A DNA stretch of 64,000 bases from Clostridia bacterium (GTDB lineage Bacteria > Bacillota > Clostridia > Christensenellales > UBA1242), in assembly GCA_045598865.1 (NCBI GenBank), contig JAZRVA010000058.1, positions 15,300-79,299 of the forward strand, given 5' to 3'. The position numbers and the translations under genes are program-made. This document shows, piece after piece, positions 705 to 25,600 of this stretch. The first letter of the stretch is position 1; every line of letters starts with the position of its first letter. The notes beneath the pieces are model-generated. The model was not told where the DNA came from, ran no database searches, and saw only the letters and a list, made by a program, of their open reading frames with translations.

Positions 705-1436
705 ATGGAATTTGAAAATTTTTTGGCACAAAAAAACAAATTATATTCCACAACGTCAAAAGTAGAAAAATTTTTTGACAAGTTTTTTAATATAGTTTTT
801 TATGTTTTGACCATATTTTTTGTCTTGTATTTTACATTTAACATTATGTTTATTCAGGCCAGAGTTGTGGGAATATCTATGGAGCCAACATTTAATAAAG
901 ATTTGGTTGCAACTCAGGTGTATGACGAAAGTTATTACGAAAACTCAATTTACAAAGATTATATTTATGCAAACAGGTTTGATAAAGGCACAAATGGTGA
1001 TGTGGTTATTGTTAACATTGATAACCAACTTGTGGTTAAAAGAATTATTGCCACGGCAGGACAAGCCCTCATGTTAAAAAAGGGGCAAGACGGATATTAC
1101 TATTATTATGTTAATGGGCACATAATTGATGAACCATATATTTATGCTAGGGAAGATATGAATTTTTCTTATTACCAAGCGTTTAGCTCAACTCCGGTTG
1201 AACAAAAGCAGGTTGATGGGTTTGTTAGCACAACAATTGTGGTGCCAGAAAATTGCGTGTTTGTTTTGGGAGATAACAGGTTTACGCAGTATACATCTGG
1301 TGTTATTGCCAGCAAAGATAGCAGATTTTATGGCGCAGTTAGCAAAGAAAAAATAGTAGGCAAAGTTAGTTTTTACCATGCCTACAATAAAAATTTTTTT
1401 GAATTTTTGTTTGAAAACGTAATATCTATTTTTTAA
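705..1436 (+). CDS. lepB: Signal peptidase I (S26 family)
   Basis: N-terminal TM helix. Catalytic Ser box GISMEPTF, Lys box VVKRIIATAGQ and C-terminal GDNR...SKDSRFYG box are all present. Confidence 0.85.
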   Translation: MEFENFLAQKNKLYSTTSKVEKFFDKFFNIVFYVLTIFFVLYFTFNIMFIQARVVGISMEPTFNKDLVATQVYDESYYENSIYKDYIYANRFDKGTNGDVVIVNIDNQLVVKRIIATAGQALMLKKGQDGYYYYYVNGHIIDEPYIYAREDMNFSYYQAFSSTPVEQKQVDGFVSTTIVVPENCVFVLGDNRFTQYTSGVIASKDSRFYGAVSKEKIVGKVSFYHAYNKNFFEFLFENVISIF

Positions 1437-2235
1437 TTAAATCGTTAAAATTTGGAAAGTCACCATCGCTTTGTGCATAAACAAAATCGTTTGTGCCAAG
1501 CAAGGTGCTTTTTAATTTTCCAAATGGATTGTCGTTTGTGTTATAGCCAAGCAAATGGTGGTGAAAGAAGGAATAATAACCCTCAGGAGAAACAATTATG
1601 TGGTCGCAAAGTTTTATGCTAAGAGACATTAAAATTTCATAAAGGTCATTAGTAAAGGCAATGTCGTTATCCGATGGTTGTGGCTTACCATTTGGGTGAG
1701 TGTGGCAGATTACAACGGATTGTGTAGGATACTTTAAAATTTGGTTTATAAACTCTCTTTTGTTAACATAAAGCTGAGATGATGAACCACTGCCCAAGGT
1801 TTTAAAACAAAGCAAATCGCCCTTTTCGTTTAGGCATAAATAATAAAACTTTTCGATTGCTGTAAAGGTTACAGTGTTTAGTATGTATTCAATAATTTCC
1901 TTTGCTCCTGGCAAAGTAATTTTTGTTTTTGCACGGCTATTTTTGTAAATTTCTGGCAGAATTGAACAGAAATTTAAAAAACTTGCAACCACTTCGCCAA
2001 CACCCTCAACCTTTACTAGCTCTTCTGGCTTTGAATCAAAAACATTTGCTAGTGTGCCAAATTCTTCCAACAATTTATGTGCTAGAGGGTTAACATCTTT
2101 TTGAGGCAAGACATATGTTAAAACCAACTCCAAAATTTGATGTTCTGGCAGAGAGGCAACATCTGTGTTTAAAATTAAATTTCTAAGTCTGGACCTGTGC
2201 CCAGAGTGAGAATGAGATTGATTTGTTTTTTCCAT
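1426..2235 (-). CDS. RadC-like JAB/JAMM domain protein
   Basis: JAMM motif HTHPNGKPQPSDND (HxH-x7-S-xx-D) plus an N-terminal HhH-like region. Start moved to the ATG at 2235 (MEKTNQSHS...), which has aggaa 7 nt upstream. The ORF-track start at 2280 has no SD. Confidence 0.75.
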   Translation of the reverse strand: MEKTNQSHSHSGHRSRLRNLILNTDVASLPEHQILELVLTYVLPQKDVNPLAHKLLEEFGTLANVFDSKPEELVKVEGVGEVVASFLNFCSILPEIYKNSRAKTKITLPGAKEIIEYILNTVTFTAIEKFYYLCLNEKGDLLCFKTLGSGSSSQLYVNKREFINQILKYPTQSVVICHTHPNGKPQPSDNDIAFTNDLYEILMSLSIKLCDHIIVSPEGYYSFFHHHLLGYNTNDNPFGKLKSTLLGTNDFVYAQSDGDFPNFNDLIKK

Positions 2236-2374
2236 AAAAATTCCTATTACTAAACTTTTAGATATTTTAACATATAACAAAATCTTTTGTTAACAAATTG
2301 ACAAAAATTTTTTTATGTGTAATATTTATCTTACCAAAGAAATAATTAATTTAATATTTTGCAAGAGGTAAAAA

Positions 2375-3238
2375 ATGGAAATTCAAGTAACTGCTGATAG
2401 CACGTGTGATTTGACACCAGAACTTATTAAAAGGTTTAACATTAAAGTTTTTCCACTTGTGGTAACGCTTGGAGATGAAACATATTTTGACGGTGAAGAC
2501 ATAAAACCAGATGATATTTATGCTTACTTTAAAAAAACGGGAGAGCTTCCAAAAACCGGCGCAAGAAGCATTGAGGACTACAAGGATTTTTTTAAACATT
2601 TTACGGAAAAAGGCAAGACTGTTGTTCATGTTAGCGTTGGCTCGGATTTGTCGAGTGGATATTCAAACAGTACGGTTGCCGCAAAGGAAGTAAAAAATGT
2701 GTATGTTGTGGATTCCAAAACCCTTTCTTCTGCGGTTGGACTTCATGCAATGTATGCTGCAGAACTTGCAAAGCAGGGCAAGCTTTCGCCGGAAGAAATT
2801 GTTAAAAAAGTGGAAGCGAGGGCTGACAAATGCCAAGCATCTTTTGTTATTGAAAAACTAAAATTTTTGGCAAAAGGTGGCAGATGTTCCCGCCTTGCTG
2901 CTTTTGGTGCAAATATTTTGGGCATTAAGCCAAGTATTCAGGTTGTTAACGGCAAAAACGAAGTTAGCAAAAAATATATGGGGAAATTACTTAGTTGTAT
3001 TTCAAAATATATTGATGATATTTTGGCAAAATACAACACTCCAGACACAACAAGGGTTATGATAACATATTCCACCGCCACGCAAGAGATGATAGACCTT
3101 GCAAAAGCTAAATTAGAGGAGTATGGCAAGTTTAAAGAAATTATGGTAACCCAAGCAGGAAGTGTTATTAACTGCCATTGCGGCGAAAACACTCTTGGAA
3201 TTTTGTATTTTAATGATGGAGATAAAACCCATTACTAA
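2375..3238 (+). CDS. degV: DegV-family fatty-acid-binding protein
   Basis: N-terminal ADSTCDL motif, typical DegV length (287 aa), and agaggt SD upstream. Confidence 0.8.
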   Translation: MEIQVTADSTCDLTPELIKRFNIKVFPLVVTLGDETYFDGEDIKPDDIYAYFKKTGELPKTGARSIEDYKDFFKHFTEKGKTVVHVSVGSDLSSGYSNSTVAAKEVKNVYVVDSKTLSSAVGLHAMYAAELAKQGKLSPEEIVKKVEARADKCQASFVIEKLKFLAKGGRCSRLAAFGANILGIKPSIQVVNGKNEVSKKYMGKLLSCISKYIDDILAKYNTPDTTRVMITYSTATQEMIDLAKAKLEEYGKFKEIMVTQAGSVINCHCGENTLGILYFNDGDKTHY

Positions 3239-3295
3239 AATTTGCTAAAAGACTGTTTTTAATTGCAATATACAAGTTTTTCAAAAAAAATAATA

Positions 3296-3324
3296 AAAGC
3301 CTTACTAAAAGTTGGGCTTTTTTT
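3296..3324 (+). terminator. Possible terminator after degV
   Basis: aaagcc...gggctttttttg: a short GC stem (agcc/ggct) followed by T7. The stem is weak. Confidence 0.35.
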
Positions 3325-3508
3325 GTTTGCTTTTTTGCAATATGGTGCTGTTTTTGGTTGTAAAAACCCTTAAAAACGGCTAAACATAAGCAAAATAGGG
3401 CTTTTTTATTAAAAAAATGGTTAAATTTGTTAGGAAAACTAAAAAATATATGTTAAAATTGGGTAACACTAAAAAAGTGGAACCAAAATAAAAGGAGATT
3501 ATTCTATT

Positions 3509-3781
3509 ATGAACAAAGGTGATGTTGTAAGCGCAATCGCAAACAAAGCAGGCTTTACACTTAAAGATGCAGACGATGCATACAAAGCATTTGTTGCAAC
3601 AGTTGCAGAAGCACTTAAAAAAGGTGAGGAAGTAGCACTTGCTGGCTTTGGAACATTCAAAGTTAAAACAAAAGCAGCAAGAAAGGGCATCAACCCACAA
3701 ACAAAAGCTGTTATCACAATTCCAGCAACAAAAGCACCAAGTTTTAAATTTGGCAAAAGCTTTAAAGATTTAATTAAATAA
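3509..3781 (+). CDS. hup: DNA-binding protein HU
   Basis: The 90-aa product MNKGDVVSAIANKAGFTLKDADDAYKAFV...GFGTFKVKTKAARKGINPQTK is a near-canonical HU/IHF fold sequence. A strong aaaaggaga SD is present, and an extended -10-like tgttaaaat lies at 3451-3459. Confidence 0.92.
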   Translation: MNKGDVVSAIANKAGFTLKDADDAYKAFVATVAEALKKGEEVALAGFGTFKVKTKAARKGINPQTKAVITIPATKAPSFKFGKSFKDLIK

Positions 3782-3804
3782 GTTTAATAAAATCAAATAA
3801 AAAA

Positions 3805-3840
3805 GCACCTGTTTGCAGTTTGCAAGTGGGTGTTTTTTTT
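3805..3840 (+). terminator. Rho-independent terminator of hup
   Basis: 12-bp stem cacctgtttgca / tgcaagtgggtg (with G-U pairs), 3-nt loop, followed by T8 (3833-3840). Confidence 0.8.
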
Positions 3841-3865
3841 GTGCAAAAAAATGTTTTAAAAACGC

Positions 3866-4185
3866 ATGATACTTTCTTTTGCTCGGACAAGAAAGCGTTG
3901 CCAAAGAGCCCGCCACGTCGTGGCACAAGCGTTTGGTTGCAAGGCAAATAAAATTTGCCACAGGCAACACTTATGCTTGACCACTCCTTTATCCCACAAC
4001 TCACGGTGGCTCGTTGTGGGAGCCCTTAAAGGCGATTTCCCCCGGAGCCCCTTAAAACGCTTTCTGATAGGTTGTAAAAAATTTGTAGAGTTTGTGTTTA
4101 ATGTGAACAAAAAAATTAGTATTTTGATTTCTGCATTACATTTAGGGGAAAGTGGTGTGCAAAATTTTGTGGCAAAAAAGGGATT
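3866..4185 (+). repeat. Degenerate copy (R0) of the hairpin-repeat element family
   Basis: Same component order as the element at 22255-22522. It has the ctttctt/aagaaag hairpin (3872-3895), then aaagag plus a small hairpin gccac/gtggc (3912-3924). An 8-bp hairpin cccacaac/gttgtggg follows (3993-4020), then the box ttcccccggagccccttaaaacgctttctgataggttg (4037-4073). It ends with a decayed R-type end cattacatttaggggaaagtggtgtgc..ggcaaaaaagggatt (4133-4185). Confidence 0.5.
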
Positions 4186-4534
4186 AAAAGAACACAATTG
4201 TTATGCCGGAATTTAGGTTTTTTAGGTCTGAATCTACCAACAAATTTGGGTAAATTTTTGAGTAATTTTTAAAGGTTTTTCCGCTTCTTGCCAACGCTTC
4301 GTTGGCAAAAAAATCGGCAATTTTTCCTTGCTTTTTTAGGCGTTGCAGTAGTGTGGGCAGGGCCTTTTTTATTTGCCCGCCAACCCCACTTGAACCATAG
4401 CCGTGAATAATTTTTAGGCCGTCAATTTTGGGTTTTATTAGTTGCAAAATTTCAATTTCGGTTTCCACTTCCGCCAGGGCTTGGTCCACTGTGAAAGAAC
4501 CATTTTCCACATTGATTGTTTTAAAATTTTCCAT
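4184..4534 (-). CDS. Smr-like (MutS2 C-terminal type) small nuclease-domain protein, 116 aa
   Basis: MENFKTINVENGSFTVDQALAEVE...LKIIHGYGSSGVGGQIKKAL...NSGITIVFF resembles the Smr core (IIHGxG, C-terminal G.T.V). The canonical DLHG is replaced by VENG. The ORF-track extension to 4834 is only translated repeat DNA, so the start is placed at the ATG at 4534. Confidence 0.55.
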   Translation of the reverse strand: MENFKTINVENGSFTVDQALAEVETEIEILQLIKPKIDGLKIIHGYGSSGVGGQIKKALPTLLQRLKKQGKIADFFANEALARSGKTFKNYSKIYPNLLVDSDLKNLNSGITIVFF

Positions 4535-4540
4535 ATAAAA

Positions 4541-4569
4541 ATTATAAAATAAACGCCAAAAATACACAA
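4541..4569 (-). promoter_or_regulatory. Candidate sigma-70 promoter of the Smr-like gene (possibly giving a leaderless mRNA)
   Basis: The minus strand reads TTGTGT - 17 nt - TATAAT - 6 nt - ATG. There is no SD between the -10 and the start codon. Confidence 0.4.
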
Positions 4570-4585
4570 ATATTTTTTGTGTTTT

Positions 4586-4977
4586 AACCCTTTGGTGCGT
4601 TTGCACCAACCTTCCCCTAAAGGGGACACTGAGAGTGAAAGTTGGCAAATTGCAACCGTGCCTAAAGGGGACACTGAGAGTGAAAGTTGGCAAATTGCAA
4701 CCATGCCTAAAGGGGACACGAAGAGTGAAAGTTGGCAAATTGCAACCGTGCCTAAAGGGGACACTGAGAGTGAAAGTTGGCAAATTGCAACCGTGCCTAA
4801 AGGGGACACAGGAAGGAGAGTTGTGTTTTTCCACCGAGTCCCTAAAACGCTTTCTGAGAGGTCGTGAAAAATTAAAAAGTGTACCGTTTGGGAAAGAGAC
4901 GAAAACTTAGCCAACAATCAATCTGTGTCCCATTTAGGGGAAGGTGGTGGGCAATTTTTATTGCACACCAAAGGGTT
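4586..4977 (+). mobile_element. MITE-like non-coding element R1 bounded by inverted hairpin ends
   Basis: Left end (4586-4629) is aaccctttggtgcgtttgcaccaaccttcccctaaaggggacac. Right end (4925-4977) is its imperfect reverse complement, gtgtcccatttaggggaaggtggtgggcaatttttattgcacaccaaagggtt. The interior holds a 45-bp array plus the conserved box ttccaccgagtccctaaaacgctttctgagaggtcg (4829-4863). TTTGTGTT occurs on both flanks (4576-4583 and 4978-4985). Confidence 0.55.
4616..4810 (+). repeat. 45-bp tandem repeat, 4.3 copies
   Basis: The unit is cctaaaggggacactgagagtgaaagttggcaaattgcaaccgtg, starting at 4616, 4661, 4706 and 4751, with a partial unit at 4796. Units differ by 0-2 substitutions. 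The period is a multiple of 3 and at least four reading frames stay open. Confidence 0.95.
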
Positions 4978-5195
4978 TTTGTGTTGTAACAAAAAGCTGA
5001 TTTCGCCCAATTGGACGGCGGGTGCCAAAATTGCCACAATCCGCTAAAAAAGCGGGAAGTATAAAATTTTTAAAACTATTTTTGTTTTTTTGTAAAAATG
5101 TTTGGTTTTATGCACAAACTATTGTAAAATATTACTTGTAATATTATATATTGCGGGCGTGTATGCACATGCGCGAGCTTAAAATGCGCAAATGT

Positions 5196-5371
5196 AACCC
5201 TTTGGTGCTGTTGCACCAACCTTCCCCTAAAGGGGACACTGAGAGTGAAAGTTGGCAAATTGCAACCGTGCCTAAAGGGGACACAGAGAGTGAAAGTTGG
5301 CAAATTGCAACCGTGCCTAAAGGGGACGCAGAGAAATAGTGATGAAAGCACAATTCCCCTAAATGGGACAC
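5196..5371 (+). repeat. Element copy R2 in the leader region of giant gene 1
   Basis: L-type end at 5196-5239 differs from R1 only in the hairpin loop. The same 45-bp unit occurs 2.3 times (5226-5330). An R-type core in flipped orientation, cccctaaatgggacac, follows at 5356-5371. There is no complete right end. Confidence 0.7.
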
Positions 5372-5412: not shown

Positions 5413-5443
5413 GCACTTTCTTTTGCCAGTTATAAGAAAGTGC
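5413..5443 (+). promoter_or_regulatory. Conserved 10-bp-stem hairpin (HP1) in the leader of giant gene 1
   Basis: gcactttctt-ttgccagttat-aagaaagtgc. Homologous hairpins lie at 22255-22285 and 3872-3895. There is no T-run after it, so it is not a classical terminator. Confidence 0.5.
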
Positions 5444-5509: not shown

Positions 5510-8500
5510 ATGAAAACAAACATTTTTAAGAAAATTTTAAAAGTCGTTGCGGGAATGGCAGTTGCGTTGGCCATGGTTTTATCCAACCCTTTGGTGCTGT
5601 TGCACCAACTTTCCCCTGCAGGGGACACGGAAAATGGTGGGGGGAGTTTGTATGCAAGTGCAAGTTCTGCCTCAAACCCAAATGTTGGCGCTGTTGCAGG
5701 CGTAAGTTCTTTGCAGGACTTGCTTGTTAAAACAACATTAACAAACAATGGATATAAAAATGATGGCACTGCAATAACAGATGATTTAACGACACAGGAC
5801 TATGTTTGGCTGCCAAAAAGCGGCTCTGCCAGCGATTTAACGGCTATTCAGGGCATGGTTACAAACAGCGATGCTGGCAGAATGACCACAGCCACCGAGT
5901 GGGCCCTTGCTAACAACAGCTACGTATATGATTGCTGCACAACTAGCTCACCATATTACTGGCTGCGCTCTGCTCCTTCTGCTTCTTATGTGCACCGTGT
6001 GTACTACTTTGGCAGTGTGGTTGACACCTATGTGTACTCCTCCTACGTTGCGGCGCGTCCCGCTTTGCAACTCAATCTTGCATCTATAATCTCCGCACGA
6101 AGTGCGTTGGGCATTGAAATTGATGCAACTGCTGGCACAATAATCATTCCGCAAGTTAAATACCCTCAAACGCTGGTTGACACAACAAGCGCTTTGGCAA
6201 CAACGTTAAACACCCTGGGCAACACAGACAGTTCCACTAGGGCAGTTAGTCCTTCTGGTGGAATGCTTGCCACAGGGGTATCCTATCCTGGCTACGACAG
6301 CAGTTACAAGGAATACTATTATGATGGAAACTACTATGTTCACGCTAAAATTAACAGATACTCGGGCTCGGATTCGTTGCCTTTTGCACAAGAGCAAGAC
6401 ACTGCCACTGAAGACCCAAGCACTCACAAGGTTACTTGGACTACTGCCGATGATTTGGCCAATGGCAAGTATGCATGGTTTAAGGTGGAGCCAATTGTAT
6501 GGCATATTTCTAACTTGAGTGAAATTTTAAGTGATATAAATAACAACAACACAAGCACCACAAACACAATGTATGTTATATCAAACCAAGCAATTGTGGA
6601 GATGGGACAATTTTATATCAACGGCAGTGATGCTTACCGCAGCATGTGGCAGAACTCCCGCTTAAGGGCATACTTAAACGGCTACAATTTGTTAGAAGAA
6701 AACGCAACAAACGGCAATGCAACTTACAATGCTGCGCTTGTTACAAACAACAATGCTAATTTTGACTTTTCTGGGCCAGGAAAGGGCTTTTTGCAAACTG
6801 TTTGGCATGAGGCTGTGCCTGCTAAGGTTATTTTTGACCCAGTGGGGGGAGATAGCTTTGTTGCATTACAATCAGCCTTGAATGTGGCAAGTGTTCAAAA
6901 TGTTAGGTTTGCATCAACTTTAACTGTTGATAATGCTTTTGTTTCTGCAAATGGGTCAACAATAGATTTTAAGGGCAAAACTCTTTCTGGGGTTGGTATA
7001 AACAACTGCTTAATTAACATAACAACTTCTTCTGATGTAACAATTGCAAATGCTAATTTTGCCGATTGCCCTTATGGCGCGATAGTGTCAACCGGCACTG
7101 GAAAATTAAATGTTCAAAATTGCACATTTACAAATTGCTATGTGAATTATGAACAAACGGTTACTTCAACTACAGTGGTGGAGAACAAGGCGCAAGGTGG
7201 GGCTATTAAAGTTACGGGAGATTTGAAGGCCACAAACTGCAATTTTGTGGGGTGCTATGCAAAGGCAAGCGTTACTGCAACTGGCAGTGGGGTGGTTGCA
7301 ACTGTTAGCAACCTTGCCCAAGGCGGCGCAATTTATGCCAAACCTGCCTCTGGCACAGCCAATGTGGAACTTACAAACTGCACATTTGACGGGTGTTATG
7401 CACAGTATTCTCAAACTTTAAACGATAGCGCCACGGCTAGCAAAGATTCTGTGGATTGTGGTGGAGCTGTGTTTGTTGAAGGTGAGTCAACGATTACAGA
7501 CTGCACTTTTACAGGTTGTTATGCTGCCGATGGTGGAGCAATTAATGCAACAACCACAAATGTTAAAGCATGCACCTTTACGGGGTGTTATGCCAGCTCT
7601 TCCGCTGGAGCAATTAGGGCAACCACACTTGAAACGCACAACTCAACCTTTGAGGGCTGCTATTCCCAGGCTGGTGGAGGGGCTGTGAGGTGCACAAACG
7701 CAAGTGTTTATGATACATCTTTTTATTCATGTCGCTCAAATAGTAGTGGTGGAGCAATACTTGCAATTACACTAAATCTTAACAATAGTTCATTCAACAA
7801 TTGTTGTGTTACTAGTGGCAACTCAGGTGCAGTTTATTGCGGAAGTTTGTATGGCGACGGCAATAAATTTACTAATTGTTATGCACAAAGTTATGGTGGA
7901 GCTATAAATTGTTCTGATGGTATACTTGAAATTAGTAATACATTGTTTGACAATTGCTACTCACAACTGTCTCAATATCAAGGCGGGGCAATTTCCACCA
8001 CAAATGGCTCTTACAAAAAGATTGTTAATTGCCAGTTTTACAACTGCTATTTAAACAATGCAAAAAATACAACAGACACTGGTTATGGCGGTGCTGTGTA
8101 TGTGGCAAACAATAGTTATACTTCACCAGGGGCATGTAGTGCCGATGTTAGCATTGTGGGGTGCGTGTTTGGCAAGTGGGTGGATGCTAATGGTGATGGT
8201 GTGGTGGATGCAAATGAAAATGAAATTTTTGGCAACAAGGCTAAATATGGCGGCGCGTGCTACATAAACACCACGGGCAATGTTACCATTGAGGATAGCA
8301 CATTTGTGGGCAACGACTTTAATTACAGCGGGGAGGTTTTTTTTAACGTGAACTTTATGGGTGCGGCACTTTATGTGCCTAGCGGAAATGGCAAAAACTT
8401 GATGCTTTCTAACTGCGTGTTTGAGCACAATGGATATGGGGTTATCTCTGGCTCAGATAAAGGCATTGGGACTTTGTTTGCAAGTGGTTATAAAACATAT

Positions 8501-11500
8501 ATAACAAACTGCGTGTTTGATGACTGCCGTGGAGGAGTAGCGTCTGCGCTTAAAATAAATGGAAGCGGAAATTTTGTTATGAGTAACACTATAATTAAAG
8601 ATACAACAACTGGTTATGGTGGGCTTGTGGATGTTGGAGATTTTAACTATCTTAGTGTGAGCAATTGTTCTTTTAGTGGTTATAAAAATGGGAACCATAG
8701 GAATGACGCTAAAACTCTTTACAGATTTGCAGGCAATACAGAAATTGAATTTAAAAGCAATATCATTTTTAACCATGATTACACAAGTACTACTGCGAGT
8801 GGCACTTGCGTTTCGCTTGACTCGGTAACTGGTACGGTTAAGAAGATTGAAGGCAACACCTTTGAACAAAACAAAAGCTTTACAAATGTGCTTAACGTTT
8901 TCAACAGCTATAGAGTGCAGAGCTACTTGAAAGATAACAAATTTGTGAACAACACAAACAAAGATGGTGGTGGGAACATTGTTAATGTTAACGTATACAC
9001 GTATAACAGTGTCACGTTGGATGGGGGTGACAGATTGGTGGTGGAAGATTGCGTGTTTGAGGGGAATAGTGGCAGGGCGCTTTATGCCGGGGCGCACATA
9101 AACACAATTAAGAACTGCACGTTTAGCAACAACACGCTTGCTAGCGGCAACGGCGCGGCAATTAATTTGCCTAAGCCAACGGCAGGTTCAACTGGGTTGA
9201 CAGACCCACCTTATCTCAAAACCAGCGAGAAAAACCAAATTTTGAATTGCAAGTTTAGTGGAAATTTGACGTCAGCTAATGATTCGCTGGGTGGCGCTAT
9301 TTATTCTATTGAGAATAGGGTTGACATTGTTTCTTGCCAGTTTAGTGCAAATCAGGCAAAATCCGCAGGAGGTGCTATTAGAGCTGATATAACAAATTCT
9401 GACAATAGAGAACACTGTTTGATAAGTATTTCAAATTGTCAATTCTATGCAAATGTTGCTTCTAACGGGGATGGTGGTGCTGTTTCATCTACTAACAAAT
9501 CTGAGTGTGATGGATGTTTGTTTGAGAAAAATTCCGCAAGAAAAGGCGGCGCCGTTTCTATGAACTTTGCACCGACGTTTAAAAATTGTAATTTTTATGA
9601 TAACTATGCTACAACTGAAGGTGGGGCAATTTTCAGCGGAAGCAGTGTTTCTCTTACCGATTGTTTGATTTCCAACAATTATGCTGGTACAAATGGTGGT
9701 GGTGCAAAAGGGAACGCATTTTCAATTAAGGGTGGAACACAAATTATTAACAATTATTGCGGTTCCTCTGGTTTTGGTGCGGGTGTTTATGTTAGTTATA
9801 TTGGCTTTACATTAGTTCCTAGTGCTAAGGCCATTGTTATTAATAACAATTTTGGCAATGCTGTATGGGATGACACAAACAAAAAAGTTGAGAGTTATGA
9901 CGAAAACAAACCATCAAATGTTTACAAAGTTGACCCTTATATGATTGGATTTGACTCGTCATATTTTAAATATGGCAAACCTAACATTGATGTTGGATTT
10001 TCGTTTAACAACCTTGACATCCAAAATCATATTGGTGATGGCAAGGATTATTGTTTTGTTGTACATGAAACCGAATGGGCTTATTCTGATATTTTAGAGT
10101 GTTTGCACCCAGATGTAACAACAGTTGAAATTACTAGTGGTGATAATGCCGGAATTTATGATTTGGTGCCATACTATGATAGCGCTAAATACATGTTAAA
10201 AATTATCAAGCAAGGCAGTGACAACATTGAATATGTTGCAAGCGGGTTTTATGGGCCTTATGACGGCTGGTGGCACACGGTGGATGTTAAGGTGGTTAGC
10301 CCAGATAGTGGTTACACAATAAAATATAGCAATGCCGAGAATGGCACATTTAGTGCAGATTTGGTGGAAAACCAAACTGTGTTTAAAGATGTTACGGTCG
10401 AAAGAACGGTGTGGTTCACCATTGAGGCTAGTGGCAAAACCACGGTTAAGGACAGTGCAAAAGTTACTATTATTGCAATGCCAACTCAAATTATTTTAAG
10501 TTCTGCCAAACTTACTGCCGATTTTGGCACGAGTTTTGCCGTTAACACATCACTTAACGGCTATTTAACTGGGGCTTTTGTTGTGGATGCAAATGGCAAC
10601 AATGTTGCGGGGGATTTCTATTTTAGCACAGCGCAAACCATGAGCATGCAAAGTGGTGCTATTAAGGCATTTGGTGGCAACTTGACGTTTAAACCAAGCA
10701 ACTCTAACTTTGCTGCACCTACTGCTGTGGCGGCAAGTGGAATTGCTGGGGCTGTGGTTTACACAGATTTGTGGTATTATGACGGCTATTTTTACAACAC
10801 ACTTGCCAGGGCTGCAACTAAGAGTGGAGAATCTATTACAAGTGACACAACTTATAGGGTAAGCAAGGCAGACAATGGTGCAACACTTACGGCCATGCTT
10901 AAATTTTTGCCTGCAAATGCAACGGTTTACTTCTTGACTGCTTATAACGTGGCGGCAAACGAAACTTTGGAAATTGGCACAAACAATTTTGTGTTTACCA
11001 AAATCACTGATACTAATATAGTTGGTATTATTGGTAATACTAATAATATATTTAGTATACAAAGCGGCAAAACCCTTACCATAACCACCGACAAATTTGG
11101 GCGCTTAACCATTTGCGGTGTGGGAACAGCTTCAAACAATCAGGCACTTATTGCAAACGCGGGAACACTTACTATTGATGGAAATGTGGTGATTAGTGCA
11201 AACAACACCACCGGTAACGCATCTTTGAAAGGTGCGGGAATTAGCGGGGGCACGGTGAATTTAACGGGTGTGACGCTTACTGGGCTTGTGGCGGCAGATT
11301 GCGCGGCAATTTATGCCAGCGGCAATTTAAGTTTGACAGACGTGGTTGTGAACAACTGCACAACAAACGCAAACAACAGCATTGTGTGCACAAATGGCAC
11401 GGCAACAATTAACTACTCAACAATTTCTGGCAACAGCGGCAACAACAGAAATGACGTTTTAATTAACGGCGGTGGTTCTGACGTGGTGCATGCAATAAAC

Positions 11501-21169: not shown

Positions 21170-21328
21170 AAGTGTCCCATCAAGGGGGTTGCTATATGAT
21201 TTATTAAGTGTCCCCTCAAGGGAAAGGGGGTATATAAGTTAAAAGTGTCCCCTCAAGGGGAAGGGGGTATATAAGTTAAAAGTGTCCCCTCAAGGGGAAG
21301 GTGGTAGGCTTTTGCCTACCAAAGGGTT
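21170..21328 (+). repeat. Tandem array of the R-type core (about 36-37-bp period, three units) ending in a complete R-type end
   Basis: The unit aagtgtcccctcaaggggaagggggtatataagttaa starts at 21170 (diverged), 21206 and 21243. The complete end gtgtcccctcaaggggaaggtggtaggcttttgcctaccaaagggtt follows at 21282-21328. The array begins 7 nt after the giant-gene stop codon. Confidence 0.85.
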
Positions 21329-21332
21329 AAAA

Positions 21333-21689
21333 ATGTTAGAACTAAAATACAACCAAAAAAACATCAATAAAGGCAAAGAGTTAAGAAAAACCATGACCAA
21401 AGAAGAACGTAAACTTTGGTTTGAATTCTTAACAAACTTGCCTATAAAAATTTACCGGCAAAAACTTATTGGAAATTTTATTGTTGATTTTTATTGCCAC
21501 AAAAAGAAAATTGCAATTGAAATTGATGGCAGTCAGCACTTTTTTGATGACGAAAAGCACAAAGACGAATTGCGGACGGAATATTTAAATTCGCTTGGAA
21601 TAACAGTTTTGAGGTATTCTAATTTGGATATTTCTAAAAATTTTAGTTCTGTTTGCAAAGATATTTATAATAAAATTTTTGAGGATTAA
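21333..21689 (+). CDS. DUF559 (Vsr-like, PD-(D/E)xK fold) endonuclease-domain protein, 118 aa
   Basis: ELRKTMTKEERKLWFEFL...YRQKLIGNFIVDFYCHKKKIAIEIDGSQH...ELRTEYLNSLGITVLRYSNLDI matches the DUF559 consensus (LR...T.aE..LW, FRRQ.piG.yIvDF.C, viElDG.qH, vlRf.N). The start is set at the ATG at 21333. The ORF-track start at 21282 lies inside the repeat. Confidence 0.85.
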   Translation: MLELKYNQKNINKGKELRKTMTKEERKLWFEFLTNLPIKIYRQKLIGNFIVDFYCHKKKIAIEIDGSQHFFDDEKHKDELRTEYLNSLGITVLRYSNLDISKNFSSVCKDIYNKIFED

Positions 21690-21704: not shown

Positions 21705-21962
21705 AACCCTTTGGTGCTTTGCACCAGCCTTCCCCTAAAGGGGACACTGAGAGTGAAAGTTGGCAAATTACAACCATGCCTAAAGGGGACACGGAAAAAA
21801 AGTAAACTCAATTTTTCCAGTTAGAATATATAAACATGTGTGTGTAATTTTTTCAGTTAGAATACGAGGAAAGTTGTCCCACCTCTAAGGAAAATACTAA
21901 AACTTGTATTAATTTGTGTCCCCTCAAGGGGAAGGTGGTAGGCTTTTGCCTACCAAAGGGTT
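21705..21962 (+). mobile_element. MITE-like element copy B bounded by inverted hairpin ends
   Basis: L-type end at 21705-21747, 1.3 copies of the 45-bp unit (21734-21792), and an internal direct repeat cagttagaata (two copies). The R-type end at 21916-21962 is identical to 21282-21328. Confidence 0.6.
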
Positions 21963-21986
21963 AAAACTCGCTCATAAAACCAATAA

Positions 21987-22016
21987 AACCCGTGGTGCGA
22001 CCCACGGGTTTTTTCT
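21987..22016 (+). terminator. Rho-independent terminator closing the giant gene 1 / DUF559 unit
   Basis: 9-bp stem aacccgtgg / ccacgggtt, 6-nt loop, followed by a T-run (22009-22014). Confidence 0.8.
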
Positions 22017-22254
22017 ATTTTTATTACCAAACAAAAAACACTAAACAAAATTGTTACATGTGGCTAAAATAGCAACTTGCACAAACTTTTAACTTTTTAA
22101 AAACTTTTGGGTTTTTGTGGCAAAAAATTGCGTTTTTTGTTTGGTGAAATTGCCTTTATATAATATAATTATTCTTGTATAATTATACCCACTATGCTCA
22201 TTATAACTTTGAGGGTTAAAGTTCTTTTGCAAAAGACGTTTCAAGAAAAGCATT

Positions 22255-22285
22255 GCCCTTTCTTGTAACTGGCAAAAGAAAGGGC
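22255..22285 (+). promoter_or_regulatory. HP1 hairpin copy upstream of giant gene 2, with its loop inverted
   Basis: gccctttctt-gtaactggcaa-aagaaagggc. The loop is the reverse complement of the loop at 5423-5433 (10 of 11 nt). One stem pair is changed from A-T to C-G. Confidence 0.5.
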
Positions 22286-22293
22286 GCAAAGAA

Positions 22294-22522
22294 AACCCTT
22301 TGGTGCTGTGCACCAACCTTCCCCTAAAGGGGACACAACAAGTGTTATGTTGCCATAAAGGGGACACGGCAAGAGTGTTTGGCAAGTGCAAACATACCCA
22401 AAGGGGATGCGGAAAAAAGAAATTGCGATTCCCAAGAGACCCCTAAAACGCTTTCTAAGAGGTTAAGAAAACTAGAAAAGTGTCCCATTTAGGGGAAGGT
22501 GGTGCGAAGGCACCAAAGGGTT
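22294..22522 (+). mobile_element. TIR-bounded element R4 in the leader of giant gene 2 (MITE-like; an invertible segment cannot be excluded)
   Basis: Left end (22294-22336) is aaccctttggtgctgtgcaccaaccttcccctaaaggggacac. Right end (22480-22522) gtgtcccatttaggggaaggtggtgcgaaggcaccaaagggtt is its reverse complement apart from the loop, one indel and one mismatch. The interior has diverged aaaggggacac units and the box attcccaagagacccctaaaacgctttctaagaggtt (22429-22464). Confidence 0.6.
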
Positions 22523-22601: not shown

Positions 22602-25600
22602 ATGAAAACAAATTGTTTTAAAAAAGTTTTGTTCTGCTTTGTAAGTGCAATGTTTGCGCTTGCAGGGTTTTTTGGTGGTGGAGTGCTTGCAGTTAAAACA
22701 GCGGGCGCTGGTTCTGCCACGGCCGGAACAAACAACCTTGGCATAACCGCCGCATCAAAAAACTCTTTGCCAATGGCTTATCAAGAACTTGAATATATTG
22801 AGTCTACTGGTGAGCAGTATATTGATACAAACACCTTTTATTCATCTGCTGATTATGCAATAGAAGTTAAATGCACGGTTACAACTTTGTCACAAAACCA
22901 ATATGCTGCGATTTTTGGAACAATTGAGAATAATGAATCCAATCCTGCTTTTGTTTTGTTTGGAATTAATAGTATTTCAGGAAGATTTGGTAAATGGACA
23001 TCAAGTTCTGACAACACATTGAGTTCCGGCGTCCAATGGGTTGTTGGAGAAACCCATATAATCAAGGCAACAACCGGAAGATTGGAACTTGATGGGCAAG
23101 AGTTCGAAAATGGGCAAGAGTTTTCATTTGTATCCTCTTCTATGAAGCTATTTTGTCGTGGCGGATATAATTCGGCAGTATTTTATAATAGTGCTTATGA
23201 AAAATGCAGAATATACTATTGCAAAATCTTTAATGGCAATATCTTGGTTCGTAACTTTGTGCCATGTTATGAAAAGGCAACGGGCAAAGCCGGGCTTTAT
23301 GACACAGTGGAAGGCAAGTTTTATGCAAATGCAAACACCTCTGCTAGTGTAGACTTCACCCGTGGCCCAGAAATCAAAACCACCGAAAAGCTTGTAAACC
23401 AAGCCCGAATGCTTAGTGGTAATACTAGTATACCATCTTATTTGACTCCTGTAGAATACATAAAGAGCACAGGCACGCAATACATAGACAGTGGCTTTGC
23501 CCCACAGGGTGGAGTTGCCTACAAGGTTGAGGTTGACTTTCAATTAAATTATAACGGTGGTGAAAATTGGGCATTTGCTATGTATTCCGATCCATACACA
23601 TGGAGGTGTGGTGGTTCTGGTTCACTTCATACTGACAGTTACTTTACTTACTCTCAAAGCACATGGAATGTTAGAACTCTTGGCAAAAGCAGTGTTACAC
23701 TTTCTGGTTCTAACAGCAACAATAGAACGGTGCTTTTCTTTGGCCAAAGAGAAGCAGGCATTGCCTACCACGTGGCAAACAGTCGTTTAACATTTTATAG
23801 TTGCAAAATTTGGGCTGCTGGGAAATTGATCCATCAATATATTCCAGTTAAGACAAATGCTGAAACTGAGGCGTATATTGGCTTTACACAAACAACTGCT
23901 GCTGCAGGCACCGCTGGCCTTTATGATATTGTTGATGGCAAGTTTTATGTTAATGCTGGAACAGGCACCTTCCAAGAAGGAACAGAAAAACCAAGTGTTG
24001 TTTCAGAAGTTAGTTTGGAAAGAATAACGGGTGGCAAGTTTACAACTTTGGCTGCAATTGAAAGTACCGGAACACAATGGATTGATACGGGATTTAAGAT
24101 TGGTACAAATAGTCAATTAAAGGCAGATTTTCAATTTTCTGGAACAACAAATCAAGTTCTTGTTAGTGGTGGTAGTCAAATAATTCCCATCGCTGTTTAC
24201 GGTAATTACTTGTCTTTTTGGGTAGATGGTGGGGATTCTTATCCAAGTATGCAAACTATTTCTGCAAATACAAGATACAACGTTGATTATAATTTTAAAA
24301 ATAAATATGTGAACGTTAATGGCACTAAAGTTTATGATATGACTTATTCAAGTTCAAAAACTGCGAATATAGACTCTGCTATATTTGTGAATAGGTATGG
24401 TGGTTCTAATTCTTTTGATAGGTATTGTTCCTGCAAATTATATTATCTTCAAATTTTTGATGATAACAATATTGTTCGTAGCTTTGTTCCTGCTATGGCT
24501 AATGAAACTATTGCGACAGCCTACAATGGCACAAGCACTGTTAGCAATGTGGCTGCTGGCACTGTGGGGCTTTATGACACTGTTGAAAACAAATTTTATG
24601 TTAACTCTGGCAGCAACGTATTTTTTGCTGAGGAAAACTTTGACTTGGTTTTGGAATATGATTCCACAAAAGTAAATTCTACCGGTGGTGGTGAATATGG
24701 TTTGGTTGCGGTTGAGGATAACGGAGATGGCTCATACACTCACGTGGTTGAGGCAGATTATACAACCCAACCTGCTGGTGGATTGTTTGCCAAAGTAACC
24801 GACCCAAGTGGGGAGTTGGTGGCACAAGGCATCATTGCTTCAGTGGAGGCGGGCGATAGTGGTGTGACATACTTTAAATTTAACTATTCAAGCAATGTTC
24901 CTACATACAAAATAAGCATTTGGAGTTATGATTCACAAGGTTATTACACCAGCAATATGACAAAGGCAAGCACAATTGTTTATTTGAACGGGCAAGATGG
25001 CGTGGACGGAGAAGGCTATGGCATAGAATACGACAAGCCAGTTAAGAGCCTTACCAAGGCCTTCCAGATTGCAAACGGCTTGGCTGCAAATGACGTGACA
25101 ATTTGGGTTACTGGAAACAACTTCTACGTTGGCAATGAGGTGGACCGCAATGGCAATGGTGGAGAACCAATTAAACTTGAAACCAACAAAAACATTAACA
25201 TTTTTGTGGCTTCTAGTGCAAACCAAGCATTTTTTGTGTTTGACGACCAAGACAACACAAAGGAATATCCAACCTATGAAATAATTTTTGGTGACGAAGA
25301 TGGCATTGGCAGTATTGTGTTTGACGGCACTTACTGCACCGGCGATCTTGAAGCTGTGTTTGACTTGACACCAAACAGGTTTGAAATTGTTGAGTTTTTG
25401 AGCGGGGTGGAAATTAAAAACTTTGAGGTAGAATATATTTTTGATTTGGACGTTGGCCAAAACACAAGCGGGCACGACGTTGTGCTTATTGACGGCGTTT
25501 TGTTTGAAAACAACACGGTTGACGCTGTTGTTTATGTTGAAGATGATGGAATTGCAACTGTGCAAAACAGCCAGTTTGTTAACAACACAACCACTAAGGG

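Follow-up and report, generated by a model that had tools for sequence, protein, structure and literature searches.

An inverted-repeat segment in the leader of a giant Clostridia gene is one copy of a modular repeat family that adjoins DUF559 genes

Shortly upstream of giant gene 2 (22602-50384), which encodes a 9,260-aa protein with a signal-peptide-like N-terminus and a right-handed beta-helix region, lies a segment bounded by inverted repeats (E5, 22294-22522), and the question raised by this locus is what such a segment is and what it does in front of such a gene. Positions refer to the 64,000-nt stretch of Clostridia DNA that was analysed (the window), and features are on its forward strand unless stated otherwise. 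The initial annotation had proposed either a MITE in the leader or an invertase-driven DNA switch, and its description of the segment itself was accurate. The two 43-nt arms (22294-22336 and 22480-22522) are inverted repeats with 81% complementarity without gaps and 39 matching columns of 44 in a gapped alignment. They diverge in the loop of the hairpin, at a single indel (ACCAACC vs ACC-ACC) and at a single mismatch (AAAGGGG vs AAATGGG); in 20 shuffles the highest 43-mer inverted match scored 21-24, compared to 35 here. The left arm consists of AACCCTTTGG, a first hairpin (hairpin 1, GGTGC-tgt-GCACC) and the core CCTTCCCCTAAAGGGGACAC, and the right arm of GTGTCCCATTTAGGGGAAGG, its hairpin 1 (GGTGC-gaag-GCACC) and AAAGGGTT. 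The 143-bp interior (22337-22479) was correctly called non-coding, as it holds neither an ORF of note nor a promoter-like site. A further 79 nt separate the end of the right arm from the gene 2 start codon, an ATG at 22602. Folded as RNA, E5 reaches -103.8 kcal/mol (z = -8.6), a stability matched by 0 of 200 shuffles.

What the initial annotation missed is that the arms and inner modules of E5 recur at six further sites in the window. Repeat, tandem-repeat and BLAST mapping placed arms or modules at at least seven sites in the 64 kb, and the core motif CCYWAAGGGGA was matched 27 times versus 1.5 expected, a count that none of 100 shuffles reached. A full element has the order left arm, tandem core-motif units, inner module, right arm, and is best seen in E1 (4586-4977), with a left arm, 4.3 tandem 45-nt units, an inner module (4840-4885) and a right arm (4925-4977). 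E0 (3985-4185), which abuts the 3' end of a Smr-like gene, is decayed to an inner module (4053-4083) and a right-arm remnant (4139-4185), while E2 (5196-5371), in the leader of giant gene 1, has a left arm and 2.4 tandem 45-nt units without a full right arm, and carries a right-arm-type core in left orientation (5354-5371). Directly past the stop codon of giant gene 1, E3 (21170-21328) comprises 3.7 tandem 37-nt units, every one with the core palindrome GTGTCCCCTCAAGGGGAAGG, and a full right arm (21282-21328); E4 (21705-21962) comprises a left arm (21705-21747), one 45-nt unit (21749-21792), an unrelated interior and a right arm (21916-21962). Finally, a left-arm module sits in frame within giant gene 1 just past the signal peptide (5585-5628; …VLS-NPLVLLHQLSPAGDT-ENGGG), with both hairpins kept and a core loop of TGCA, not TAAA. 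The tandem units thus vary among copies and genomes: 45 nt repeated 4.3, 2.4 or 1 times, 37 nt repeated 3.7 times, and about 60 nt in locus L023.

E5 fits into this series along its whole length. Its left arm shares 95-98% identity with those at 4586, 5196 and 21705, the first 25 nt of its right arm are the same as in the right arm at 4925, and its interior contains two decayed core-motif units (22350-22367 and about 22395-22412) followed by the inner module CCCCTAAAACGCTTTCTAAGAGGT (22441-22463) that it has in common with the other copies. Since E5 is colinear from end to end with E1 (392 bp), it is a shortened, decayed copy of the whole unit. The idea that E5 is a unique local inverted duplication or a chance palindrome without any family is already refuted by the copies elsewhere in the window and in other genomes, and by shuffles that never approach the match of its arms, and retains next to no probability. 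All copies in the window cluster around the two giant genes, and none occurs in the approximately 12 other intergenic regions; this clustering could reflect a local role or simply local duplication.

Other classes of repetitive DNA were considered for these arrays and discarded. On either strand, several reading frames run open through the 45-nt units and give ORFs of 60-216 aa (4577-4867 and 4635-4910 on the forward strand; 4184-4834, 4438-4917 and 5076-5371 on the reverse strand), but they are without start or RBS context and a coding role was rejected, the ORFs being taken as spurious. A CRISPR-like array was rejected because the cores are separated by sequences that recur as well, with a period of just 37-45 nt, and an integron attC array was rejected by eye, the end motifs not fitting and cassette ORFs being absent. 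Searches against Rfam returned only two tRNAs for the whole window at the gathering threshold and nothing credible between 21200 and 22700 at E <= 10.

Comparison of arms from the window and from related contigs revealed a common build: an invariant AACCCTTTGG, then hairpin 1, then a core of the form CCTTCCCC-NNNN-GGGGACAC. Among 44 arms, hairpin 1 occurs with 25 distinct stems (for example GTGC/GCAC, GTAC/GTAC, GTAGGC/GCCTAC, GTAGAC/GTCTAC, GTGCTGGC/GCCAGCAC and one 15-bp stem), whose pairing is kept and whose flanks are invariant, showing that the stems vary by compensatory change. The variants include no G-T or A-C pairs, so that they do not discriminate between a role at the RNA and at the DNA level. 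The arm ends come in two dialects, AACCCTTTGG and GGGGACAC in dialect a and ACACCTCATC in dialect b, and arms are found singly (L018 and window position 5585), in tandem (L009 and L029) or as inverted pairs with spacers of 15-17 nt or 120-300 nt.

The family extends well beyond the window. A scan of a genome collection with the core recovered two tandem left arms in L009, a 'Clostridia bacterium' MAG of 37% GC from buffalo rumen, and, at 16 further loci (Oscillospiraceae, Faecousia and other Clostridia MAGs), other repeat-like elements that are opened by the shared core hairpin. The elements at these 16 loci (L001-L017 except L009, from higher-GC gut MAGs) are dispersed, begin with GCCTTCCCCTTGAGGGGACAC, have structured interiors of 50-100 nt and in many cases end in a hairpin followed by GGATGAGGTG; they appear to be dispersed copies of dialect b, and no DUF559 gene, the gene to which the family is linked elsewhere (see below), lies within the stretches fetched for them. 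A metagenome scan with the full arm yielded six contigs, whereas the viral contigs, plasmids and phage records searched contained no copies. In the related rumen contigs L009, L018, L020, L022 and L023 the arms occupy intergenic regions of an ordinary kind, and neither a giant gene nor a DUF559 gene is close to them; in L023 a left arm is followed by tandem units of about 60 nt that each end in the core motif. L009 also carries a second, unrelated module (…CTCGCAATGRCAATGTG…GAGTGAGTCGTGAGG) at 1622-1684 and 1980-2042, one copy of which is fused to the arm cluster, suggesting that several repeat families share these intergenic regions. We conclude that the repeat family is widely scattered without being tied to giant genes, and that it is a previously undescribed modular repeat family of rumen and gut Firmicutes.

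This multi-copy status bears on the proposal of a MITE in the leader, of which one part stood and another did not. E5 and its relatives are short (<~500 bp), non-coding elements bounded by inverted repeats, present at at least seven sites in 64 kb, and E5 lies downstream of a conserved promoter block (see below), all of which agrees with the proposal. However, inspection by eye of the flanks of E1, E4, E5 and two elements of the related locus L021 (A and B) found no consistent target-site duplication, E1 alone among the compared elements having TTTGTGTT on both sides, with a 2-nt offset; moreover, the window encodes no transposase matching the terminal repeats, the sole linked gene being DUF559, which is not a known transposase. 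Strict MITE status is thus not supported, as the compared flanks show no consistent target-site duplication and the window no matching IS, and transposition of the element is conjectural. The variable, modular build, with single arms, tandem arms, arm pairs and tandem units, fits a repeat of the REP/BIME or BOX type better than a MITE.

To place E5 relative to the transcription of gene 2, the sequence between E4 and the ATG was inspected. A bidirectional intrinsic terminator lies between E4 and the gene 2 promoter (21985-22020; stem-loop 21985-22012 plus T tract), in agreement with the terminator previously noted at 21987-22016, and the promoter candidates suggested for 22137-22183 resolve into a sigma70-like promoter at 22155-22183 that matches the consensus at 10 of 12 positions; TGTATAAT was dropped as an extended -10 element, the scan flagging no TG in the right position. 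Both strands of 22294-22522 were scanned as well and contain no promoter-like site, as had also been stated initially. Alignment of the leaders of gene 1, gene 2 and the giant gene of L021 identified a common promoter block, TTTGTTTGGT...CTTGTAWWATTATA (5085-5160 and 22125-22190 in the window, 8690-8800 in L021). The three genes, whose products start with similar signal peptides (MKTN.FKK…), are paralogues or orthologues with duplicated upstream regions. In L021 the promoter block leads to the ATG within about 90 nt and without any element, whereas gene 1 has E2 and gene 2 has E5 in this interval; because L021 keeps the promoter block without the element, the latter is a dispensable insertion downstream of the promoter. 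The leader of gene 2 also includes a small hairpin, CCCTTTCTT-(11-nt loop)-AAGAAAGGG, at 22256-22284, and a hairpin of this type, CTTTCTT-(10-11-nt loop)-AAGAAAG, occurs three times in the window (5414-5442, 22256-22284 and 3872-3895).

From its position downstream of the conserved promoter block, E5 should be transcribed within a gene 2 leader of about 410-420 nt. Once co-transcribed, it would fold into an RNA stem of about 43 bp, which should not terminate transcription because no U-tract follows. By analogy with Correia elements, the stem could serve as an RNase III-type processing, stability or protection site, or it could have little effect: PMC2649163 describes CREE in transcribed regions as forming dsRNA stems that can be bound and cleaved or protected by RNase III and can alter the expression of the neighbouring gene. 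Like CREE and MITEs, the elements described here are small, non-coding and bounded by inverted repeats, but they vary in length, show neither a TA nor any other target-site duplication in a consistent manner and have no IS with matching ends in the window, and, unlike in CREE, the ends of E5 create no promoter-like site.

A more specific role in the leader was also considered, namely that the element is a dedicated cis-acting leader RNA of the giant genes, such as one for processive antitermination or for stability, or else a protein-binding or titration array on the AAGGGGACAC motif. Both giant genes do have an element in their leaders of approximately 350-420 nt, the fold is strong and the motif is repeated at regular spacing. 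Such a role is nevertheless distinctly unlikely, as modules occur in both orientations to transcription, past stop codons and inside a coding region, as well as in intergenic regions of relatives that are unrelated to giant genes, while they are absent from the L021 leader; in addition, Rfam gave no match and unit sequence and length vary between genomes.

Next, we considered whether DNA between the arms inverts. L021 is partly syntenic with the window, with HU, a Smr-like gene and DUF559 followed by the giant gene, and the two L021 elements flanking DUF559 (9473-9719 and 8870-9080) have interiors that are mutual reverse complements at 98 of 116 positions and align poorly in direct orientation, even though their outer hairpins keep their sides (a 5-bp GGTAC type on the left, a 7-bp GGTARGC type on the right). 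These reversed interiors are the footprint of an inversion between the arm cores. On a larger scale, the block made up of the Smr-like gene and E0 (window 3850-4585) has its orientation to HU and DUF559 reversed in comparison with the syntenic contig L021 (9730-10074), and it extends as far as the left arm of E1. On a smaller scale, the leader hairpins at 5414-5442 and 22256-22284 have flanks in direct orientation but reverse-complemented 11-nt loops (TTGCCAGTTAT vs GTAACTGGCAA), a micro-inversion at the hairpin that suggests general recombination, or template switching where repeats are inverted, and not a dedicated invertase. From the L021 interiors, the Smr-like block and the 11-nt loop, it follows that DNA bounded by inverted repeats has flipped in the evolution of this lineage.

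Do these flips amount to a switch? The switch envisaged initially, in which the 143-bp interior of E5 (22337-22479) would flip between its own arms and thereby alter gene 2 expression, has in its favour that the arms are long and similar (39/44) and that the L021 sister elements have flipped interiors; yet no promoter-like site exists inside the segment on either strand, the conserved promoter lying upstream, the interior consists of decayed repeat units, and the element is dispensable in L021, whose leader is without it. Moreover, Pfam scans of all plausible non-giant ORFs detected no recombinase, transposase, tyrosine or serine invertase or Y1 transposase in the window, consistent with the original remark that no recombinase gene is present. 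An invertase-driven switch at E5 was therefore not borne out, and the flipping of its interior as a control of gene 2 is very unlikely. The locus resembles invertons in having inverted repeats upstream of a surface-protein gene and in arm-bounded DNA that has flipped in evolution, but it differs from them in lacking a promoter between the repeats and an invertase nearby in the window, and in that the repeats are dispersed in multiple copies and are not a locus-specific pair.

A different switch would use the arms of neighbouring elements. The promoter segments 4978-5195 (between the right arm of E1 and the left arm of E2) and 21963-22293 (between the right arm of E4 and the left arm of E5) are each bracketed by inverted arms, a geometry that can be read directly from the sequence, and if such a segment were inverted, its promoter would face away from the giant gene and the terminator would come to lie beside that gene. 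The flipped arm-bounded DNA mentioned above (the A and B interiors of L021 and the Smr-like block) lends this model some plausibility, as does the fact that DUF559 genes occupy the same right-arm-to-left-arm bracket and that PMC9881135 names DUF559 among predicted, exclusively model-based, targets of programmed inversion. On the other hand, L021 has no arm between promoter and ATG, so the bracket is not conserved; both promoters face their genes in this assembly; the window contains no invertase; and two elements that flank any segment will produce such a bracket automatically. Promoter flipping is thus an unlikely account of E5, which we continue to regard as an inserted repeat copy.

A look-up of independent assemblies of the locus returned no record for the window DUF559 protein (both start versions) or the Smr-like protein. 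The HU look-up returned only L024 (Logan SRR14630334), a 2.5-kb contig from a related species that aligns to window 1365-3852 with 83% identity and ends just past the HU terminator, where the repeat cluster of the window starts; assemblers probably break at these repeats.

The gene bracketed by E3 and E4 provided the most unexpected aspect of the family. It encodes a 118-aa DUF559 protein with a Vsr-like PD-(D/E)XK fold (21333-21689; PF04480, E = 9.8e-28), whose closest solved structure, 3HRL, is uncharacterised. Its ATG follows the end of the E3 right arm at a distance of 4 nt, and its stop codon precedes the start of the E4 left arm by 15 nt. The public gene call (P0001, 135 aa) starts at a GTG within the right arm of E3, but homologues indicate that the real start is the ATG at 21333. 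DUF559 homologues at 57-71% identity, together with the window and L021, represent 10 lineages with seven different gene neighbourhoods and 36-59% GC, and each of the 10 has arm modules adjoining DUF559: seven carry them on either side of the gene, and three (P0002, P0004 and P0083) solely downstream of it. Across nine DUF559-anchored loci (74 kb), 13 of the 14 matches to the strict core pattern fall within 300 nt of DUF559 (P = 5e-14).

The arrangement of the arms around DUF559 follows the dialect. In dialect a, the window, L021 and P0005 loci have the order right arm, DUF559, left arm, the left arm starting at the TAA stop codon in the L021 and P0005 loci, while the P0002 and P0004 loci have arms downstream only, in L027 (P0004) as two pairs that each consist of a right arm, 17 nt and a left arm. 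In most dialect b loci DUF559 follows a left arm and precedes a right arm, and its TGA stop codon lies within the core-hairpin loop, an exception being L042, where a right arm, 15 nt and a left arm directly follow the stop codon. The DUF559 proteins, all of which keep IVDFYC...IE(L/I)DG.QH, cluster by dialect, with mean identities of 65% within a, 75% within b and 56% between them, a pattern that is confounded with host phylogeny. In the Oscillospiraceae- and Acutalibacteraceae-type MAGs L035-L041 (about 2850-3410), DUF559 occupies a conserved position in the shikimate operon (aroB-DUF559-aroA), and in L052 (2440-2900) it lies between genes for a HAD hydrolase and an AP endonuclease; in L035-L041 and L052 the arm supplies the final DUF559 codons (…SP) and the TGA stop.

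Identical DUF559 proteins from many contigs and samples (P0083 and P0034) sit at one fixed locus each, which argues against recent jumping of the DUF559 unit. Strains with the same DUF559 protein (P0005) differ in the number and order of the flanking modules, as seen in L029 (5554-5650), L030 (1869-2140) and L032 (1-260). Downstream of the gene L030 has an extra block of about 175 bp, made up of a right arm and two left arms, and upstream of it L032 carries a run of three left arms that a linker joins to a right arm. Judged from these contigs, rearrangement between close strains is frequent.

Does DUF559 act on the repeats? The clade of Vsr and DUF559 includes a homing endonuclease (PMC3424549), and, as a weak lead, the 'DUF559 domain-containing protein' is enriched among model-predicted programmed-inversion targets according to PMC9881135; in the literature mentioning DUF559, as surveyed, we found no discussion of repeats. 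It is possible, and we suggest it tentatively, that the DUF559 nuclease is the functional partner enzyme of this repeat family, and equally tentatively that the two constitute a REPIN/RAYT-type or intragenomic homing system across Clostridia, built on a PD-(D/E)XK nuclease and not on an HUH transposase. Cutting or nicking by DUF559 at the arms would then drive copying, unit expansion and inversion of arm-bounded DNA, which could include the giant-gene promoter segments 4978-5195 and 21963-22293. On our main reading, new copies and rearrangements would stem from recombination at the arms or from the action of a nuclease there, for which the adjacent DUF559 is the candidate partner enzyme.

The known systems closest to this one are BOX and the REP/BIME/REPIN repeats. 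Covarying hairpin stems, inverted doublets and a small nuclease gene flanked by repeats at one locus per species are features of REPIN/RAYT (PMC3337134). Like REP, BIME and REPIN sequences, the modules described here form hairpins whose stems covary beside invariant flanking bases, and occur as singlets, as tandem copies and as inverted doublets, whose spacers are variable and which can fold into long hairpins; as with RAYT, the small nuclease gene lies at one fixed locus per species, flanked by its own repeat type, and nuclease clades match repeat dialects. Several differences stand against these likenesses. In place of an HUH/Y1 transposase, the associated gene encodes a DUF559 protein of 115-125 aa, whose PD-(D/E)XK fold is Vsr-like and whose activity on the repeats is putative; the arms are longer (43-53 nt, two hairpins) than REP sequences; the hosts are Clostridia-type Firmicutes, unlike those of REP/RAYT systems; and the arms are without the GTAG or CGTC tag given for REP superfamilies in PMC3733652. 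Membership of the REP family thus fails twice, by the missing tag and by the missing Y1 transposase among the window ORFs, and the DUF559 arrangement is best described as analogous to RAYT and not as belonging to that family.

BOX elements of pneumococcus and S. suis consist of boxA, a variable number of boxB units of about 45 nt and boxC, with ends that pair into a stem-loop; their unit number varies between copies and strains, large arrays make spurious ORFs on both strands, and the elements cluster and often overlap gene 3' ends and stop codons (PMC3049150). E1 has the same layout of a 5' module, a variable array of tandem units of about 45 nt and a 3' module complementary to the 5' module, units being fewer or decayed in E2, E4 and E5, and the repeats likewise supply stop codons to neighbouring genes and create spurious ORFs. 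Unlike BOX, however, the arm modules here also occur singly. The arm motifs are, we presume, unrelated to the BOX motifs, and we know of no nuclease gene linked to BOX, whose mobilisation by ISSpn2 has been proposed only. The family is therefore closest to BOX in build and closest to REP/BIME/REPIN in genomic behaviour. Rickettsia palindromic elements are palindromic modules inserted in frame within protein-coding genes, and the module at 5585-5628 in giant gene 1 is comparable to these, although sequence and host are unrelated and only one in-frame copy was seen here.

Taken together, the multi-copy status, the modular build, the compensatory change in hairpin 1, the colinearity with E1, the absence from the equivalent leader of L021, the lack of a promoter inside E5 and the tight linkage of the family to DUF559 are direct observations, and we consider it probable that E5 belongs to an interspersed repeat family of the REP/BIME/REPIN or BOX kind, with multiple, modular copies rich in hairpins, and that it constitutes a dispensable insertion in the leader of gene 2. 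Taken alone, E5 is nothing out of the ordinary, being a copy of a repeat that lies in a 5' leader, and for annotators, E5-type repeats, the spurious ORFs derived from their units and probable assembly breaks are to be read as repeat artefacts. The new aspect of the family is its link to DUF559, with dialects that match nuclease clades. If this link is functional, it would provide a first testable role for a very large and widespread family of domains of unknown function, would constitute a second, mechanistically different partnership of a nuclease with palindromic repeats beside RAYT and REP, and would account for the way in which the neighbourhood of the giant adhesin-like genes has been rearranged and inverted.
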